Part shown: piece after piece, positions 2,535 to 58,079 of the stretch
How positions within the stretch are numbered: position 1 is the stretch's first letter
Layout of the letters: each line of letters opens with the position of its first letter
Source of the DNA: a virus
Lineage: Duplodnaviria; Heunggongvirae; Uroviricota; Caudoviricetes
IMG/VR virus record: IMGVR_UViG_3300045049_000270
DNA length: 64,000 nt
Reading direction: 5' to 3' (one strand)
The notes under the pieces: model-generated
The model's input: the letters and a program-made list of their open reading frames with translations, nothing else
Databases searched by the model: none
What the model was told of the DNA's origin: nothing
Program-made: the position numbers and the translations under genes

Positions 2535-4370
2535 ATGAAGAAGAGTCTTATGGCTTCGACAATGATTGCTATTTTGGCAATCTCTTCGCAAGCTTTTGCA
2601 GATTGCACTGGTAATCCGCATGACTGCACAAGTGCAACCCAAACATATGTTGATCAAAGCATTGCAACAGAAACGACCCGAGCAACCAATGCAGAATCTG
2701 GTTTGCAAAGTCAGATCACGACGAATGCTGGTAATATCACTGTTTTGCAAAAACAAGCTGGCGATTTGCAAACGCAGATCAACAACACTAACACCACTGT
2801 CAACGGCCTGGGTCAAGGTCTCGCCAGCACACAAACGCAAGTAAATGCAAATACGGCAGCTATCAATAGCCTACAGACGAATAGTGCTTCTCATCAAGAA
2901 GTGATGAATTCGGCGGCTGCGACATTGTCAGCAGCTAATGCAAATGCGAGCACAGTCGTAGGCGCTGAAACGCAACGGGCACAAGGTGTTGAAGCTGGCT
3001 TGCAGAATCAAATCAACAACAACGCGGCAACCGCTTCATCGATGGTTCAAGGTGAAAATCAGCGAGCAACGACAATTGAAGGAATGTTGCAATCGCAGAT
3101 TGCGGCAAATGCATCGACTGCGGCTGGAGCAACGGCTGCTGAAACCGCTCGCGCACAAACAGCAGAGTCGACGCTGAATGCAAAGGTTAATACTGCGCAA
3201 TCAACTGCAGATAAAGCACTTGGTGCCGCAGGCGCGGCACAGAGCACTGCTAATCAAGCATTGACTGGAGCTGGTGTGGCGATTGGCATCGGTATTGGTA
3301 ATTCGATCGCGATCAACGCAACTGATCAACGTCTTGACCAAACAAATGCTAATGTGGCAAATGTTGCGAAGCAAGTTTCGACGAACACGTCCAATATTGC
3401 TTCGCTGCAACAAAAGAGCGCTACGCATTCGGAAGTTACTCAAGCGATGGGTAATGCGATCGAACAAGCAAATAGCTTCACCATGGGACAGGTTGCTGGT
3501 GAATCGCAACGTGCTCAAGCAGCTGAAGCATCGCTGAGCACGGCAATCGGCATTGAAACAACACGTGCTGAAGGAGCCGAAAACAACCTGCAGTCTCAGA
3601 TCACAACGAATGCTGCTTCTGCAAAAAGTTACACTGACCAGACGGCAGCCAAGACTCTCTCGGCGGCTAACCGACATGCTGATGCGGTTGCAGCAAAAGA
3701 CGCGTCAATCGCATATGGTGCGGCAGTTATGACGTCAAACCAATATACGAATCAAGTTGCAAGTAAGACGTTGGCTGGGGCGAAGACGTACACTGACCAG
3801 CAGGTTGGTGCAGAATCGACTCGTGCGCAGGCTGCTGAACAAACGAATGCAAATGCAATCTCGAATGAAACGCAACGTGCGAAGACTGCTGAAGCTGGTT
3901 TGCAATCGCAAGTGACACAAAATAGTGGTGACATTGCAACGCTTCAACAGCAATCGGCATCCCATGATGAAGTGGCACAAGCGCATGCACAATCCAACGT
4001 TTACACTGATCAGTCGTCGGCAGCGACTTTACAAGCTGCTAACAGTTATACTGATCAATCGGTTGCAAATGGTGTGCAGGCAGCCAACAACTACACGAAT
4101 CAACGCTTTAATCAAGCAGAGAGCGACATTAGCACGCTTCGTCAAGATATGTATGGTGGTGTAGCCAGCGCAATGGCAGTAGCAGGCCTCCCGCAACCGA
4201 TGAGTAATGGCCATTCTATGATGTCGGCAGCAGCGAGCACGTATCATGGTGCTACTGGTTACGCGATCGGCGTATCTACTGCTACTGGCGGTTGGGTAGT
4301 GAAGGGAGCAGTAACCGGTAACAGCCGTGGTGACTTTGGCGCAGTAGTCGGTGCAGGTTATCAATTTTAA
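2535..4370 (+). CDS. trimeric autotransporter adhesin (YadA-like C-terminal anchor, coiled-coil stalk)
   Basis: N-terminal signal peptide (..AFA/D), repeated AETxRAxxAE and AxxYTD stalk motifs, C-terminal GGVASAMA...GAVVGAGYQF beta-barrel anchor; GGAGG SD. Confidence 0.92.
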   Translation: MKKSLMASTMIAILAISSQAFADCTGNPHDCTSATQTYVDQSIATETTRATNAESGLQSQITTNAGNITVLQKQAGDLQTQINNTNTTVNGLGQGLASTQTQVNANTAAINSLQTNSASHQEVMNSAAATLSAANANASTVVGAETQRAQGVEAGLQNQINNNAATASSMVQGENQRATTIEGMLQSQIAANASTAAGATAAETARAQTAESTLNAKVNTAQSTADKALGAAGAAQSTANQALTGAGVAIGIGIGNSIAINATDQRLDQTNANVANVAKQVSTNTSNIASLQQKSATHSEVTQAMGNAIEQANSFTMGQVAGESQRAQAAEASLSTAIGIETTRAEGAENNLQSQITTNAASAKSYTDQTAAKTLSAANRHADAVAAKDASIAYGAAVMTSNQYTNQVASKTLAGAKTYTDQQVGAESTRAQAAEQTNANAISNETQRAKTAEAGLQSQVTQNSGDIATLQQQSASHDEVAQAHAQSNVYTDQSSAATLQAANSYTDQSVANGVQAANNYTNQRFNQAESDISTLRQDMYGGVASAMAVAGLPQPMSNGHSMMSAAASTYHGATGYAIGVSTATGGWVVKGAVTGNSRGDFGAVVGAGYQF

Positions 4371-10885: not shown

Positions 10886-11956
10886 ATGTCATATTTCATC
10901 CGTAACGGCAACACTTTCAGCGTTTCAGATTCCGCATCACTTGATATTCACAGCGAATTGCCAGCTGGTAATTACATCGTTCGCCAAAATCCTCAAACTG
11001 GTGCATTGTATCTGGAGATGATCGACAGTTTCACTCCCATCAGTAAGATGTACGGCGATACATCTCGCAATGCAGATCGAATCATTAACACATTCATGCA
11101 ACGCACAGTAAGCACTGGCGTTATGCTTACCGGTGAAAAGGGTAGTGGAAAGTCTTTGCTTGCTAAGACATTGTCAATCAAGTGCGCTGAGCAAGGTATT
11201 CCGACCATCGTTATCAATGCAGCATGGAAGGGTGATGGCTTCAACAAGTTCATGCAGGACATAAACCAGCCTTGTGTAGTTTTGTTCGACGAGTTTGAAA
11301 AAGTATACGATCGTGAAGATCAGGAAGAAATCCTGACTCTGCTTGATGGTGTTTTCCCCAGCAAGAAGTTATTTGTGATCACATGTAATGACAAATACCG
11401 TGTCGATTCACACATGCGTAATCGTCCGGGTCGTATCTATTACATGATCGACTTTAAAGGTTTGGCGGAATCATTCATTCGTGAATACTGCGAAGACAAC
11501 TTGGAGAACAAACAGCATATCGACAAGATTTGCTCAATTGCTTCGTTGTTCCATCAGTTCAACTTCGATATGCTGAAAGCTTTGGTCGAAGAAATGAATC
11601 GTTATGGCGAAAGTCCGCAAGATGCATTGCGTATGCTGAATGCAAGCCCAGAGTACGACAACGATGCCAAGTATGAAGTGCAACTTATCATCAACGGTAA
11701 GGAAGTTGAAGAACGTCGTATGTCTGGTGATCGTGAATGGCGTGGTAATCCTCTTTCACCTGAAGGTATCTCCATTGGTTATTACGAAGATTCCAGTGCT
11801 GATGAAGGTGATTGGGAATGGTCAACGGTTAGTTTCACATCTAGCCACCTGCAGAAAATTGATTCATCACAAAGTACATTCGTGTTTGGTGATGCCACAC
11901 GAAAGTTGATTCTGAAGAAGGTGCAACCCAAGTACTTCAACTACGATGCAGTATAA
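10886..11956 (+). CDS. AAA+ ATPase
   Basis: Walker A GEKGSGKS, Walker B VVLFDEFEK, RPGRIYY arginine finger. Confidence 0.9.
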   Translation: MSYFIRNGNTFSVSDSASLDIHSELPAGNYIVRQNPQTGALYLEMIDSFTPISKMYGDTSRNADRIINTFMQRTVSTGVMLTGEKGSGKSLLAKTLSIKCAEQGIPTIVINAAWKGDGFNKFMQDINQPCVVLFDEFEKVYDREDQEEILTLLDGVFPSKKLFVITCNDKYRVDSHMRNRPGRIYYMIDFKGLAESFIREYCEDNLENKQHIDKICSIASLFHQFNFDMLKALVEEMNRYGESPQDALRMLNASPEYDNDAKYEVQLIINGKEVEERRMSGDREWRGNPLSPEGISIGYYEDSSADEGDWEWSTVSFTSSHLQKIDSSQSTFVFGDATRKLILKKVQPKYFNYDAV

Positions 11957-20533: not shown

Positions 20534-22408
20534 ATGGCACTTGACAAATCAGTCATCGACTCCAAGCGAGTCGAACTTGAAAAAGTAAAAAAGCAGCTCA
20601 AAACAGAATTCTTTGGTCTCGACTCAATCATCGACAAGGTGATTGATTCAATGTCGGCCTGGTATATTTTCCCTGAACTTATTACACGTCCAGTCATAGT
20701 TAACCTTTGGGGTATGACTGGTGTTGGCAAGACGCAACTCGTGCGTCGCATTGTTTCCCTGCTCGATTTTAGTGACCGCTTTGTTGAAGTGGTTATGGAT
20801 GGTAGTTCATCTCACGGTAGTTATTTTAGTAACTCACTTTCTTCGATTTTGTCGCAATCAAAAATTGAAGAAGGTAAGCCAGGCATTTTGTTGCTTGATG
20901 AGATTCAACGTTTCCGTACAGTTGATGATAACGGCGGTGACATGAAGGTTGAACGTTATCAAGACGTATGGACGTTGTTGAGTGATGGTAAATTCTCATC
21001 CGATTCATCAGTATTCAATGAGATTGAAATGATGATGGCCAGTCGCATGAACGACGATGATGAAGAAAGCGAAGTTGTGGCAGAAGGTGAAACAAAATCC
21101 AAGAAGCACAAGATCTACATGTGGGAAGCAAACAACATCAAGAAGCTTTTGCGTTTGCCGAATTCAGTTTCCGAGATCATGTCGTGGGATTCAAAAGATG
21201 TGGTAGCTGCATATCATAAAGTTCAAGCAACACGCAAGTCATGGGAAATTGATTATACGAAGTTGATCATCTTCATCTCTGGTAATCTTGACACTGCATT
21301 TGCTGGTGCAACCAGTACGGACGATTCAGACACTGATGCTGACTTCTACCACGAAATCACAAAGAATATTTCAACCAACAAGATCAAGGCAAATCTGTTG
21401 CGTCGCTTCCGCCCAGAGCAAATTGCTCGCATGGGCAATAACCACATCATCTATCCCTCGATGAGCAAAGTGTCATACCAGAAGCTTATCGCAGCAACGT
21501 GCAAGCGTTACACTGATGAGATGACTGCGGTATCAGATATCAAGTTTGACATCGACCAGTCAATACTCGATCAAATTTACGACAATTCAGTTTTCCCAAC
21601 ACAAGGAACACGACCAGTCTTTTCTTCGATTCATAAGATCTTCAGTAATCTGCTCGTCAACCTTACGTTTTGGGCCATTGAAAATGACCACAAAGACGTG
21701 AAGCTAACGATCAATGATGGCTTAGCTTTTGTTAATGCAACAGCAGATGGGCAAACAGCCAAGTTTGCAGTTGAGTTCGAAATGAACGAACGCAAGAAGA
21801 AAACATCGGTTGATTATAAGACGTTGGTTGCGGCACACGAAGCAGGGCACGCGATCACATTTGCATTGTTGAACAAGACATCACCTTTTGAAGTGAAGGT
21901 TAATATTAATTCCTTCAATGGTGGTTACATGCTGCCTCCACCAGACAACGAAGCAGTGACGCGTGAGGGATTGCGAAATGATCTCTGCATTTTGTTGAGT
22001 GGACGGGCTGCTGAAGAAATCGTATTCGGTATTGAAAATACTACTACTGGTGCGCAATCTGATATTGCTAAAGCAACTGAAGGTGCTAGTTTCTATGTGC
22101 GACGTTATGGCTTTACTGACGTTGTTGGGCTGATCGAAACTAGTGCGTCACCCACGATCAATTGGTTGACGATGATCGAAGAAACTGATCCAGCAGTGAA
22201 AGCGTTGATTCAACAACAATATGTTCGTGCTAAGGCCTTGATCGGTGAGCACCTAGACTATTACAAACATATTACAAATGTGTTGATTGAACGGAATTCA
22301 CTCAGTCAAGATGAATTTATCGCTGAATCCCAACCGTTCATTAAACTTGAAAAACAGCAACCTTCGTTTCCATTTACGGAGCGCTGGAAACAGTTTCTAG
22401 CAAAGTGA
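20534..22408 (+). CDS. AAA+ ATPase fused to peptidase M41 (FtsH-type protease domain), soluble
   Basis: GMTGVGKT, LLLDEI; HEAGH zinc motif, GRAAEE, TTGAQSD; no transmembrane segment. Confidence 0.85.
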   Translation: MALDKSVIDSKRVELEKVKKQLKTEFFGLDSIIDKVIDSMSAWYIFPELITRPVIVNLWGMTGVGKTQLVRRIVSLLDFSDRFVEVVMDGSSSHGSYFSNSLSSILSQSKIEEGKPGILLLDEIQRFRTVDDNGGDMKVERYQDVWTLLSDGKFSSDSSVFNEIEMMMASRMNDDDEESEVVAEGETKSKKHKIYMWEANNIKKLLRLPNSVSEIMSWDSKDVVAAYHKVQATRKSWEIDYTKLIIFISGNLDTAFAGATSTDDSDTDADFYHEITKNISTNKIKANLLRRFRPEQIARMGNNHIIYPSMSKVSYQKLIAATCKRYTDEMTAVSDIKFDIDQSILDQIYDNSVFPTQGTRPVFSSIHKIFSNLLVNLTFWAIENDHKDVKLTINDGLAFVNATADGQTAKFAVEFEMNERKKKTSVDYKTLVAAHEAGHAITFALLNKTSPFEVKVNINSFNGGYMLPPPDNEAVTREGLRNDLCILLSGRAAEEIVFGIENTTTGAQSDIAKATEGASFYVRRYGFTDVVGLIETSASPTINWLTMIEETDPAVKALIQQQYVRAKALIGEHLDYYKHITNVLIERNSLSQDEFIAESQPFIKLEKQQPSFPFTERWKQFLAK

Positions 22409-33565: not shown

Positions 33566-33659
33566 AGAGAGTTACCCAAGAGGTTCAAGGGGGCGTCCTG
33601 CTAAGACGTTAGGGTGGTGATAAACTGCCGCATGGGTTCGAATCCCATACTCTCTGCCA
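33566..33659 (+). tRNA. tRNA-Ser(GCT)
   Basis: class II, CT-GCT-AA. Confidence 0.9.
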
Positions 33660-33678
33660 GATATAATCGAGACCCAAA

Positions 33679-33891
33679 ATGGGAAGACGTTTAACACAAG
33701 TTGATATGGCAGCAGCACGCTATGAAGAGGAAGTTTTCAATTCTCGTTTGAAGCGTGGAGAAGTGAAAGAAGCAGACAAGATTCGTCGCACGTTTCATGT
33801 TATTTGTGGTTGTGGCGTTGAAGGTTGTATGTTCATGTCTCATATTCGTGAGCGTGACGATCAAAGCAACACGCCCAATCCAACGTTTTAA
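33679..33891 (+). CDS. small Cys/His protein
   Basis: 70 aa with HVICGCGVEGC. Confidence 0.65.
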   Translation: MGRRLTQVDMAAARYEEEVFNSRLKRGEVKEADKIRRTFHVICGCGVEGCMFMSHIRERDDQSNTPNPTF

Positions 33892-33892
33892 T

Positions 33893-33993
33893 GCCGAGAG
33901 AGTCCAGTAGGCTGCTGGTACGAATCAATAAGAGTTGGTCTTCTGGTGACCCAGGTCCAACCCGCTGCGGTTCGATTCCGTGACTCGGCTCCA
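33893..33993 (+). ncRNA. tRNA-like RNA without a paired anticodon stem
   Basis: GCCGAG/CTCGGC-T-CCA, T arm, long internal hairpin. Confidence 0.6.
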
Positions 33994-34003
33994 GTTTCGT
34001 ATA

Positions 34004-34273
34004 ACTTGATACGGGATGTAGGGATAGTAGCACCCATCATTTAAAGAGTAGGGCGTTGGACGTGGGAGAGCAGTAAAATTAGGGTACTTGCCCCAGAAAC
34101 CTAATTTCCACCTCAAACGAACTCACAGCAGTATAGTGAGAGACGAGGGGATGGTTGCTTTGAGTACCGTGGCAAGCGTTTTGCAACAGCGGAGATCCAA
34201 CGTGCATTCCATACTAGGAGTTGGGTTTTAGTCTGCATGAGCACCTTTTGGCGTAACAGCACACCATTCAAGT
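34004..34273 (+). ncRNA. 23S rRNA H43-H44 (L11/GTPase centre) mimic with ~200-nt insert
   Basis: GGATGTAGGGATAGTAGCACCCATCATTTAAAGA .. GCGTAACAGCACAC aligns gaplessly to the 1055-1088 and 1091-1104 segments of E. coli 23S as I recall them. Confidence 0.85.
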
Positions 34274-34286
34274 ATATGAAATTTAT

Positions 34287-34378
34287 GGTAGGGTGGCAGA
34301 GTCCGGATTATTGCTCCAGCCTCGAAAACTGGCGAGTCCTAAAAAGCTCCGTGGGTTCAAATCCCACCCCTACCGCCA
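34287..34378 (+). tRNA. tRNA-Ser(CGA)
   Basis: class II, CT-CGA-AA. Confidence 0.9.
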
Positions 34379-34521
34379 ATTGCAATGCCAGGCACGGATA
34401 TTACGACCGCCTGTGAAGAATCTATGTAATGCGCTTCTGTTCGTTTGAGAGCAGATGAACAATAGCAGGTATTGATTCACAGTGACAATGAATATATCAT
34501 ATGGCTAATATTGGAGGCCAT

Positions 34522-34704
34522 ATGAGACAAGACATAGTAAACCTGATTCATCAGTGCGTGGATAAGCAAGCTAAAGTATCAGCTGAATATGGTGTTACAT
34601 ACAACCAAGCTGATCGAACACGCAAGTTCAATGAGTTGAAAAATCAATTCATAGCTGGTGAAATCACTCGTGAAACCCTCGTTGAATACCTCAACGAAGA
34701 ATAA
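34522..34704 (+). CDS. small hypothetical protein
   Basis: GGAGG SD. Confidence 0.6.
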   Translation: MRQDIVNLIHQCVDKQAKVSAEYGVTYNQADRTRKFNELKNQFIAGEITRETLVEYLNEE

Positions 34705-56564: not shown

Positions 56565-58079
56565 TTGGAAATAAAAACAAATATGGAAATCAAAGTAGTT
56601 CGTCATTCTGATTATGATAAAACGCAATATCAGGACATGATTGTTGTTGGTGTGTTTGAAGAAGACATACTGACTGGTATTGTCAGTGAATATGATTCAT
56701 ATTTCGCTGGTGTCATCTCCAAGCGTATTGCTGATGGTGATTTCAAACCGTCTCTGGGCAATACGCATATTGAATTTGTGACGTCACTCTCCAGAGTTCT
56801 TCTTGTTGGTCTTGGTAAACGAGAAAAATTTGATCGTCATGCATTCAACAAGGCTGTTTCTGCTGTTGCATCAAATATCAAAGGTCGTGCGTTTTCCGGC
56901 GTTCTGGTACGTTTGATCGAACAGATCAACACCCAGTACATGACTGGCTTGGATGCTCTTCGTGAGCTTACCATGACGCTTCGTGGTGCCGAATACTCTT
57001 TTGACAAGTTCAAGAGCAAGGCTGAACCTGTTGTCTTCCCAAATGCAATTACTGTTGTCATTGATGACGATGAAAGCGTGCCGTTTGCGCAAGATTCGGT
57101 GAATACAGGTAATGCTATTGCATCGGGTATGTCGTTCACGAAAGATCTCGGTAACACACCTGGTAATGTTTGCACTCCAACATGGCTTGGTGAACAGGCT
57201 ATTACACTGGCCAATAAAAACACGGACGTGGTTGTACTAACCAAGTATGCGATCGAGCAGTTGGGTATGAATTCGTTCTTGTCAGTTGCACAAGGTTCGG
57301 TGCAGGAACCAAAGCTTATTTTGATTTCATACAATGGTGCCGATAATTATGATGAAGCCCCTATAGCATTGGTTGGTAAGGGAATCACATTTGATACAGG
57401 TGGTATCTCGATCAAGCCATCATCTGGCATGAACGAAATGAAGTACGACATGCTTGGTGCAGGTGCCGTTATTGGTGCCATCAAGGCCGCCCAACAAATT
57501 GGCATTAAGAAGAACATTGTTGGTGTTATCCCAACATGTGAAAATATGCCATCAGGTTCGGCTGTTAAACCTGGCGATATCGTTACCTCGATGTCTGGTA
57601 TTACTATCGAGAATAACAACACTGACGCTGAAGGTCGTTTGATTCTATGTGATGCATTGACCTATGCTCAACAAAAGCTGCGCACCAAGCCATCATTGAT
57701 TATTGACCTTGCTACATTGACTGGTGCTATTTGTGTTGCCTTGGGTGAAGTGCATAGTGGTTTGTTCACCAAGGATGATGAACTTGCTCGTGATCTGATC
57801 AATGCTGGTTATGGTGCTATGGATACGGTGTGGCGTATGCCCATGGATCAAGAGTTCGATGATATGTTGAAGACTAACCATGCGGACGTTGCTAATGTTG
57901 GTGGTCGTGATGGTGGAAGTTCATCTGCTGCTTGTTTCTTAGGCCGTTTCATCGAAGATGGCACACGTTGGGCTCACCTTGATATTGCTGGTACAGCTTC
58001 AACTGGTGGTAAAAACAAAGAAGCAACCGGACGACCGGTGCCGTTGCTCGTTCAGTTCTTGTTGAACCAAGCCAAGTAA
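56565..58079 (+). CDS. pepA: leucyl aminopeptidase (M17)
   Basis: VGKGITFDTGGISIKP, MKYDM, NTDAEGRL, ATLTGA, WAHLDIAG. Confidence 0.97.
   Translation: MEIKTNMEIKVVRHSDYDKTQYQDMIVVGVFEEDILTGIVSEYDSYFAGVISKRIADGDFKPSLGNTHIEFVTSLSRVLLVGLGKREKFDRHAFNKAVSAVASNIKGRAFSGVLVRLIEQINTQYMTGLDALRELTMTLRGAEYSFDKFKSKAEPVVFPNAITVVIDDDESVPFAQDSVNTGNAIASGMSFTKDLGNTPGNVCTPTWLGEQAITLANKNTDVVVLTKYAIEQLGMNSFLSVAQGSVQEPKLILISYNGADNYDEAPIALVGKGITFDTGGISIKPSSGMNEMKYDMLGAGAVIGAIKAAQQIGIKKNIVGVIPTCENMPSGSAVKPGDIVTSMSGITIENNNTDAEGRLILCDALTYAQQKLRTKPSLIIDLATLTGAICVALGEVHSGLFTKDDELARDLINAGYGAMDTVWRMPMDQEFDDMLKTNHADVANVGGRDGGSSSAACFLGRFIEDGTRWAHLDIAGTASTGGKNKEATGRPVPLLVQFLLNQAK

Follow-up and report, generated by a model that had tools for sequence, protein, structure and literature searches.

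A tRNA-array RNA of a Caudoviricetes virus that probably rebuilds the uL11-binding GTPase-associated centre of 23S rRNA, and its phage relatives

Extra-ribosomal RNAs that imitate the rRNA binding site of a ribosomal protein (r-protein) are known from the autoregulatory leaders of r-protein operons (L10, Rfam RF00557; L1; S15), which act in cis as parts of mRNAs, precede r-protein genes and resemble the rRNA site only loosely. To our knowledge, rRNA domains are not known as separate, evolving genes. Other small, stable RNAs found beside tRNAs, namely the Y RNAs (YrlA, RF02553), T4 RNAs C and D, and tRNA-like RNAs, combine a closing stem with a mimic of a translation component (PMC4201824). The domain of interest here is the GTPase-associated centre (GAC) of bacterial 23S rRNA (H42–H44, E. 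coli positions 1051–1108; the uL11/thiostrepton domain), which folds autonomously and whose tertiary fold is needed for uL11 binding (PMC6239185). Within the ribosome, the C1072/C1092 contact is a cis Watson-Crick/Hoogsteen pair, C1072 is also bonded to G1099 (PMC2952862), and A1095 is free of tertiary contacts and touches cofactors (PMC6239185). [quoted passage not shown] Both rRNA elements are targets of toxins, as Tre23 ADP-ribosylates H44 at 1095–1098 (PMC8661411) and SRLase1 cleaves the SRL (bioRxiv 10.64898/2026.09.18.752725). Isolated thiostrepton-domain and SRL RNAs are reported to bind EF-G in vitro (Munishkin and Wool 1997, PMC24907, as cited in PMC5829649), and by that account these "ribosome-in-pieces" oligoribonucleotides show that rRNA fragments can be ligand sites off the ribosome.

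We analysed a 64,000-nucleotide stretch of Caudoviricetes DNA (IMG/VR record IMGVR_UViG_3300045049_000270), hereafter the window, in which positions 34004–34273 probably encode a non-coding RNA of 270 nt, the ends of which would together rebuild the uL11-binding GAC. Its H43, H44 and junction are near-identical to those of the 23S GAC, and both RNAs have in common the helices, the 1082:1086 turn pair, U1060/A1088, the 1072/1092 pair, and the A1067 and A1095 loops. Unlike the 23S GAC, the phage RNA is free-standing at ~270 nt, carries an H44 insert (29–371 nt in its relatives) after A1088, has U-A at 1089:1101, keeps an H42-like stem as pairing only, and may have G at position 1067. Compared with the r-protein leaders, it stands alone as an RNA within a tRNA array, with no r-protein gene nearby, and follows rRNA near letter-for-letter, including the tertiary pairs. 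In contrast to Y RNAs and tRNA-like RNAs, the phage module imitates an rRNA domain rather than a tRNA, there is no Ro60 gene among the 20 largest + strand open reading frames (ORFs) of the window, and no Y-RNA match was obtained with Rfam. Whereas the RNAs of Munishkin and Wool are laboratory constructs, the phage RNA belongs to a natural, evolving gene family, of which the window member holds the GAC part only. We consider this family of GAC-mimic RNAs new, as full-text literature searches returned no description of it and Rfam 15 is without such a family; for the 10,006 candidate RNAs of a viral catalogue, no overlap with rRNA is reported (PMC10690425), and the motif may be there unnamed.

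Match to 23S rRNA and anatomy of the window element

The rrlH gene of E. coli K-12 (L001:760-3663) served as the reference for 23S comparison. Window positions 34014–34047 align without gaps to 1055–1088 with 29 of 34 identical, and 34251–34264, collinear with the first block, align to 1091–1104, likewise ungapped, with 12 of 14 identical; the initial annotation, which had given both alignments, was thereby borne out on the real gene. By our own estimate, comparing 64 kb with 2.9 kb in both orientations would yield ~1e-4 matches of 29/34 by chance, before the second block is taken into account. The H43 block was the sole match when the whole 23S was compared with the window by blastn, and the two 23S-like blocks are separated by 203 nt. 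As had been noted from the letters, the element retains A1067 (34026), A1070 (34029), A1088 (34047) and A1095 (34255), has C1064-G1074 swapped to G-C (34023/34033), and has A at position 1061 (34020). This last residue had been read as a substitution that stabilises the tertiary fold; it is indeed present but is one of several that the family allows, and does not point to a special adaptation. The determinants of the tertiary fold are all found in the window, namely C34031/C34252 (1072/1092), U34019/A34047 (U1060/A1088) and U34041:A34045 (1082:1086).

The closing stem described in the initial annotation (34004–34013 with 34265–34273) is real but imperfect, with ACUUGA at 34004–34009 facing UCAAGU at 34268–34273, followed by a 3x2 internal loop and the pairs G34013-C34265 and G34014-C34264. 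The insert, which had been placed at ~1089, is likewise real, and its position was refined to between A1088 and 1089. Because pairing across the family places U34249 opposite A34261, the true insert is, on comparative grounds, 34048–34248; U34249 pairs with A34261 (1089:1101, A-U in rRNA and U-A here) and G34250 is bulged. The junction letters AGA-GU-AGG...CCU-UUUG-GCG, together with A34261 at position 1101, agree with the insert borders of the family. The minimum-free-energy (MFE) fold of the 281-nt element 34000–34280 is unremarkable (z +0.53). The predicted features, all on the + strand, are as follows:

34004–34013 (+): closing (H42-like) stem, 5' strand; 34004–34009 pair with 34268–34273, and G34013 with C34265
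34014–34047 (+): 5' half of the GAC, equivalent to 23S 1055–1088, with the H43 hairpin (34016–34040, A1067 at 34026) and the 1082–1086 turn; 29/34 identity, match to family model R1, and covariation at 1057:1081, 1058:1080, 1064:1074 and 1082:1086
34048–34049 (+): invariant GU that opens the insert; GU in 127/128 listed elements
34050–34246 (+): variable insert domain, with a basal helix of AGG 34050–34052 and CCU 34244–34246; first three pairs standard in 91–99% of listed elements
34247–34250 (+): UUUG that closes the insert, with U34249:A34261 and the G34250 bulge; UUUG in 120/128 and UUUA in 8/128 listed elements
34251–34264 (+): 3' half of the GAC, equivalent to 23S 1091–1104, with the H44 hairpin and A1095 at 34255; 12/14 identity, and 1092:1099 covaries (CG/UA/UG)
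34265–34273 (+): closing stem, 3' strand; pairs with 34004–34013 and ends the R1 match
34287–34378 (+): tRNA-Ser(CGA), called by ARAGORN and Rfam, 13 nt downstream of the closing stem

Distribution, covariation and tertiary fold of the family

A degenerate pattern of the 5' half retrieved 22 viral contigs, of which a single one (L022) held a true 23S. The other 21 are not rRNA and continue after ...AAAGA with GU and an unrelated insert; further 3', they carry (C/U)UUUG-GCGUA..AGCACAC and a strand complementary to the stretch preceding GGAUG. Further scans, two keyed to the 5' junction and a third keyed to the 3' half, yielded at least 128 elements with at least 125 distinct cores. As the sets were collected by sequence pattern and the anchored half is biased, each half was read from the set anchored on the opposite half (half-unbiased sets). 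A short blastn query at a lax E-value revealed unannotated copies in cultured phages of Xanthomonas (XacN1, XbC2, XaC1), Cronobacter (GAP32), Pectobacterium (CBB), Serratia (BF), Erwinia (several), Yersinia (fHe-Yen9-04), Aeromonas (4_4572), Vibrio (2.275.O) and Pseudomonas (pf16, Astolliot, Milchi, UNO-G1W1). A blastn search of 33880–34400 against 50,697 phage records matched the tRNA-Ser and not the element. The window DNA itself was found in sequencing runs of soil and rhizosphere metagenomes only, and its proteins show distant links to the jumbo phages Atu_ph07, Phosso and XaC1. In prokaryote assemblies, a 16-base pattern gave 114 matches, 73 by chance and 41 in real elements, 38 of the latter in contigs of metagenome-assembled genomes and three in cultured isolates (Clostridiaceae strain 9, Flintibacter muris DSM 110149 and Bacterium D16-76; L281, L358, L369). 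Such a spread is more in keeping with DNA of phages or prophages than with a gene of the cells, and the Clostridia copies, possibly prophages, may offer tractable systems.

Every helix of the GAC covaries across the family. In the half-unbiased sets, the pairs found were AU 85 and CG 8 at 1057:1081; UA 47, AU 20, GC 20 and CG 3 at 1058:1080; CG 86, AU 5 and GC 1 at 1064:1074; UA 56, CG 24 and AU 10 at 1082:1086; GC 27 and AU 4 at 1055:1104; and UA 15, UG 9 and CG 8 at 1092:1099. The innermost pair of the H42-like stem, 1054:1105, is standard in 100% of the listed elements, and the next positions outward are standard in 78–89%, with many pair types. This stem is conserved as pairing and not as sequence, which makes the uL10 site contemplated in the initial annotation unlikely. 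An alignment of 36 members (A1) was computed with MAFFT and used, with the window excluded, to build the 168-position model R1. In A1, 91.6% of the cells of the named structure hold standard pairs, compared with 70.7% in shuffles, and both partners change in 19 of the 25 pairs; the covariation score of 0.572 (0.168 in shuffles; 0.10–0.17 in slid controls) was reached by none of 500 shuffles. Across the 64 kb, R1 gave one match only, at 34004–34273 (+), with 66.5 bits, an E-value of 1.2e-20 and all model positions (1–168 of 168) covered. Judged by this score, the window copy is a divergent member of the family, because copies from cultured phages reach 90–99 bits under R1. Its A1065 is unique among the 125 listed cores and creates an A.A opposition where others have U-A, and its G1064-C1074 is rare (3/125 listed cores).

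Rfam 15 reported nothing on the element, either for the whole window at the gathering threshold or for 33600–34700 at E<=10. Alignment to a 23S covariance model, which the initial annotation had suggested as a check, was thus silent for the window copy but succeeded for a relative with a 31-nt insert (L173), which the Rfam LSU model aligned to its positions 1092–1149, corresponding to the GAC (13.6 bits, E 0.022). A second suggestion, to look for the split motif and its covariation in other phage tRNA clusters, recovered both the architecture and the covariation. The structural part of the original proposal, a phage-encoded, free-standing GAC mimic with an insert, has strong support and holds for a whole family, because all helices covary, 1072 and 1092 change jointly, R1 matches at 34004–34273, and the short-insert relative aligns to the LSU model. 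The functions that the same proposal attached to it, namely uL11 binding, dampened RelA signalling, disturbed L10/L11 autoregulation and the absorption of toxins, are putative.

The tertiary contacts follow the same pattern. Positions 1072 and 1092 switch jointly in the 125 listed cores, being C/C in 101 and U/U in 24 without exception, and U1060, A1084, A1085, G1087, A1088, G1093 and A1098 do not vary. A1095 is A in 124/125 listed cores and in 31/32 of the set that was not selected on that half. Because it is conserved yet lacks a tertiary contact, A1095 appears to be kept for contact with a ligand and not for folding alone. The importance attached to A1067 in the initial annotation needs qualification: the residue is A in the window and in 97/125 listed cores, but G in about a fifth (24, with a pyrimidine in 4), so that 121/125 have a purine. 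Those 24 cores with G rule out an A1067-specific ligand, for instance thiostrepton, as the target of the family in general. Position 1101 is A in 125/125 listed cores, giving U:A at 1089:1101, and the rRNA has U there. Together with the U two bases before G1091, which is invariant in the listed elements, this indicates that the A1089-U1101 pair of rRNA is reversed to U-A in the family, and that the insert leaves H44 between A1088 and 1089.

The records of Enterobacterales hosts (Salmonella, Klebsiella, Dickeya) keep the E. coli 34-mer unchanged, including C1072, and the copies of their phages differ; that of Yersinia phage fHe-Yen9-04 (L121) has the U1072/U1092-A1099 form. Because phage copies thus depart from an invariant host sequence, the comparison indicates that the family is evolving independently under structural constraint and is not captured repeatedly from hosts. 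These data bear on the least probable of the readings considered, one with next to no likelihood, namely a functionless relic: a host 23S fragment that was captured, possibly as the exons around a group I intron. The high rRNA identity, and an insert that breaks rRNA-like sequence, would be expected of such a relic. However, flanking rRNA and LSU or intron matches in Rfam are missing, compensatory changes occur throughout, A1101 is fixed where rRNA has U, and copies in Enterobacterales phages differ from the host 34-mer. Moreover, at least 125 elements place the insert at the same site and share its GU...UUUG borders, although the inserts span 29–371 nt and are unrelated in sequence. The covariation and the family-wide architecture essentially exclude a relic, and a genuine 23S gene (RF02541) was ruled out by the missing LSU match and flanking domains. 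A group I intron within rRNA exons was also rejected, with no Intron_gpI match at E<=10 and with unrelated inserts of 29–371 nt at one site.

The insert domain

In the listed elements, the insert always follows A1088 directly and is 29–371 nt long (median 162). It starts with GU in 127 of 128 and ends with UUUG in 120 and UUUA in 8. Its first three pairs are standard in 99, 98 and 91%, with G-C, A-U, U-A and C-G all used, compared with ~50% in mismatched controls. The shortest inserts, in some members, consist of just a hairpin of 29–31 nt. At the other extreme, ~15 members with inserts of 315–360 nt contain AGUACGAGAGGA(G/A)C, a copy of the SRL with one mismatch.

Carriers of the SRL copy include L025, L034, L046, L056, L062, L063, L105, L137, L142 and L148, in which both factor-site rRNA elements are imitated. 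A second module, CACCCC-N6-GGUAAGG, lies ~15 nt before the 3' end of the insert in 22/128 listed inserts, among them those of L003, L019, L166 (Aeromonas phage 4_4572), L190, L203, L208, L242 and L270. In another group (L229, L260, L196, L206, L252, L259, L171, L228, L232), GGAGGUUGGCUUAGAAGCAGCCA is kept and followed by divergence, as if a second insertion had occurred after 23S ~1077.

The window insert carries neither the SRL copy nor the CACCCC-N6-GGUAAGG module, and a search of the window for an SRL copy gave no site better than chance. Comparison of the window insert with the other inserts and with the E. coli rrn operon gave no similarity, and a metagenome scan for the H43 variant of the window returned an L118-type element only and no close relative of the insert. 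Its internal fold is thus a putative one, predicted by thermodynamic folding.

The variety of the inserts bears on a further, rather unlikely reading, according to which the GAC fold, with or without uL11, would be a compact, nuclease-resistant handle comparable to tRNA-like or Y-RNA modules, and the insert (SRL copy or other module) would be the working part of a scaffold. The inserts are indeed diverse and modular, with the SRL copy in ~15 members, the CACCCC-N6-GGUAAGG module sits at a fixed distance from the insert end in 22/128 listed elements, and proteins with DUF2828/DUF7788 are encoded near six loci. On the other hand, inserts that amount to 29–31-nt hairpins point to the GAC portion as the functional core that stays constant, A1095 is conserved although this surface residue is dispensable for folding, and a search of the 20 largest + strand ORFs of the window gave no Ro60/TROVE domain. 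The reading that we prefer is developed below.

Genomic context and proposed function

All 50 tRNA genes of the window are on the + strand, and the initial annotation was right that it holds no other rRNA: Rfam gave no LSU match at the gathering threshold in the window, nor at E<=10 around the element. The element had been placed between tRNA-like RNAs within a tRNA operon. This stands on the downstream side, where tRNA-Ser(CGA) follows, whereas the upstream RNA was called by neither ARAGORN nor Rfam (E<=10) and has an MFE z of -0.57. That RNA, at 33893–33996 (+) directly upstream, is ~105 nt long and tRNA-shaped; its acceptor stem is GCCGAG/CUCGGC, its T loop is GGUUCGAUUCC, and it ends in UCCA. 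Promoter- or terminator-like sites were not found on the + strand between 33400 and 34470. Among the 128 listed loci, a tRNA lies within 500 nt of the element in 77 and within 100 nt in 62, and all 844 tRNAs in the DNA around the listed loci are on the element's strand.

Clustering of the neighbours of 165 loci identified no constant protein-gene neighbour, the largest cluster being TerD (15/165); others are AAA/nSTAND3, RNase H, CCA-adding enzyme, HNH and DUF2828/DUF7788. A DUF2828/DUF7788 protein is encoded ~2 kb from SRL-bearing elements (L062:512-2254 (-) and five related loci). The window has an AAA/nSTAND3 ATPase ORF at 10886–11956 (+), and a protein with the same domains lies within ~1 kb of the element in eight other loci, e.g., L297:4297-5427. 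The + strand of the window also encodes an FtsH-like AAA/M41 protease (20534–22408), an M17 leucyl aminopeptidase (56565–58079) and a YadA-type membrane-anchor protein (2535–4370).

Each of the five complete carrier phage genomes has one copy of the RNA, and none of the five has the uL11 RNA-binding domain (PF00298), which was detected in 14/14 cell genomes as a positive control. This context weighs on the very improbable reading of the element as a cis-regulatory leader that mimics rRNA, through which uL11 or uL10 would repress a downstream gene. Autoregulatory leaders that imitate rRNA provide the precedent, but the next gene downstream is a tRNA and downstream genes vary by locus, no r-protein genes were found, uL11 is absent from the five carrier genomes, and Rfam returned no leader match. 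An r-protein autoregulatory leader was accordingly discarded as a candidate, as contradicted by the context and by the lack of a conserved downstream ORF.

Our preferred reading, to which we assign a probability of roughly 0.5, is that the element is a gene for a stable trans-acting RNA with the GAC fold, most likely loaded with uL11, which would act as a decoy or sponge off the ribosome. The RNA would be co-transcribed with the phage tRNAs and then excised by tRNA-processing enzymes, with the RNase P cut at the 5' end of tRNA-Ser(CGA) generating the 3' end of the RNA precursor. Its two ends would fold as the GAC tertiary structure (H43, H44 and the top of H42), and the variable domain would exit between A1088 and 1089. 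Because uL11 recognises the GAC tertiary fold, we infer that free host uL11 would most likely be taken up by the RNA. The resulting small ribonucleoprotein (RNP) may present the A1067/A1095 face off the ribosome, and thus be a decoy or sponge for whatever docks there. Its putative clients, in order of preference, are a GAC-directed toxin of the host or of a competitor, followed by deacylated tRNA/RelA or a translational GTPase.

Several points count against such a decoy RNP. According to the predicted structure, the insert lies within H44. The window copy is divergent, with its unique A1065 and with an internal loop in its closing stem. Sequestration of uL11 would also need the RNA in amounts comparable to the free uL11 pool. 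More generally, and tentatively, large phages may make, along with their tRNAs, a uL11-loaded miniature copy of the ribosomal factor site (the GAC, plus the SRL in some lineages), either as a decoy against toxins directed at the GAC or SRL, or as a trap for deacylated tRNA, RelA or a GTPase.

A related reading, which we consider unlikely, has the RNA act on the stringent response by titrating newly made or exchangeable uL11. Ribosomes without uL11 would then fail to activate RelA, and the ~50 phage tRNA species, some of them uncharged, would not set off (p)ppGpp synthesis. The location of the element in very large tRNA arrays and the conservation of a fold of the predicted uL11-binding type are in line with this, as is the stacking of the A/R tRNA elbow on A1067 (PMC5829649), a position with a purine in 121/125 listed cores. 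Yet uL11 already assembled into ribosomes would not come off quickly, and the neighbourhoods have no link to (p)ppGpp genes. We retain the decoy or sponge for ligands of the A1067/A1095 face as the leading reading.

If true, the family would represent a new kind of viral non-coding RNA and an rRNA-mimicry class of counter-defence or translation control, adding a layer to the means by which phages interfere with translation in the host or protect it. The idea is directly testable in the cultured phages that carry unannotated copies and in the three cultured Clostridia assemblies. The family also constitutes a natural experiment on which GAC residues serve folding and which serve ligand contact, and its members are compact natural scaffolds for structural work on RNA.
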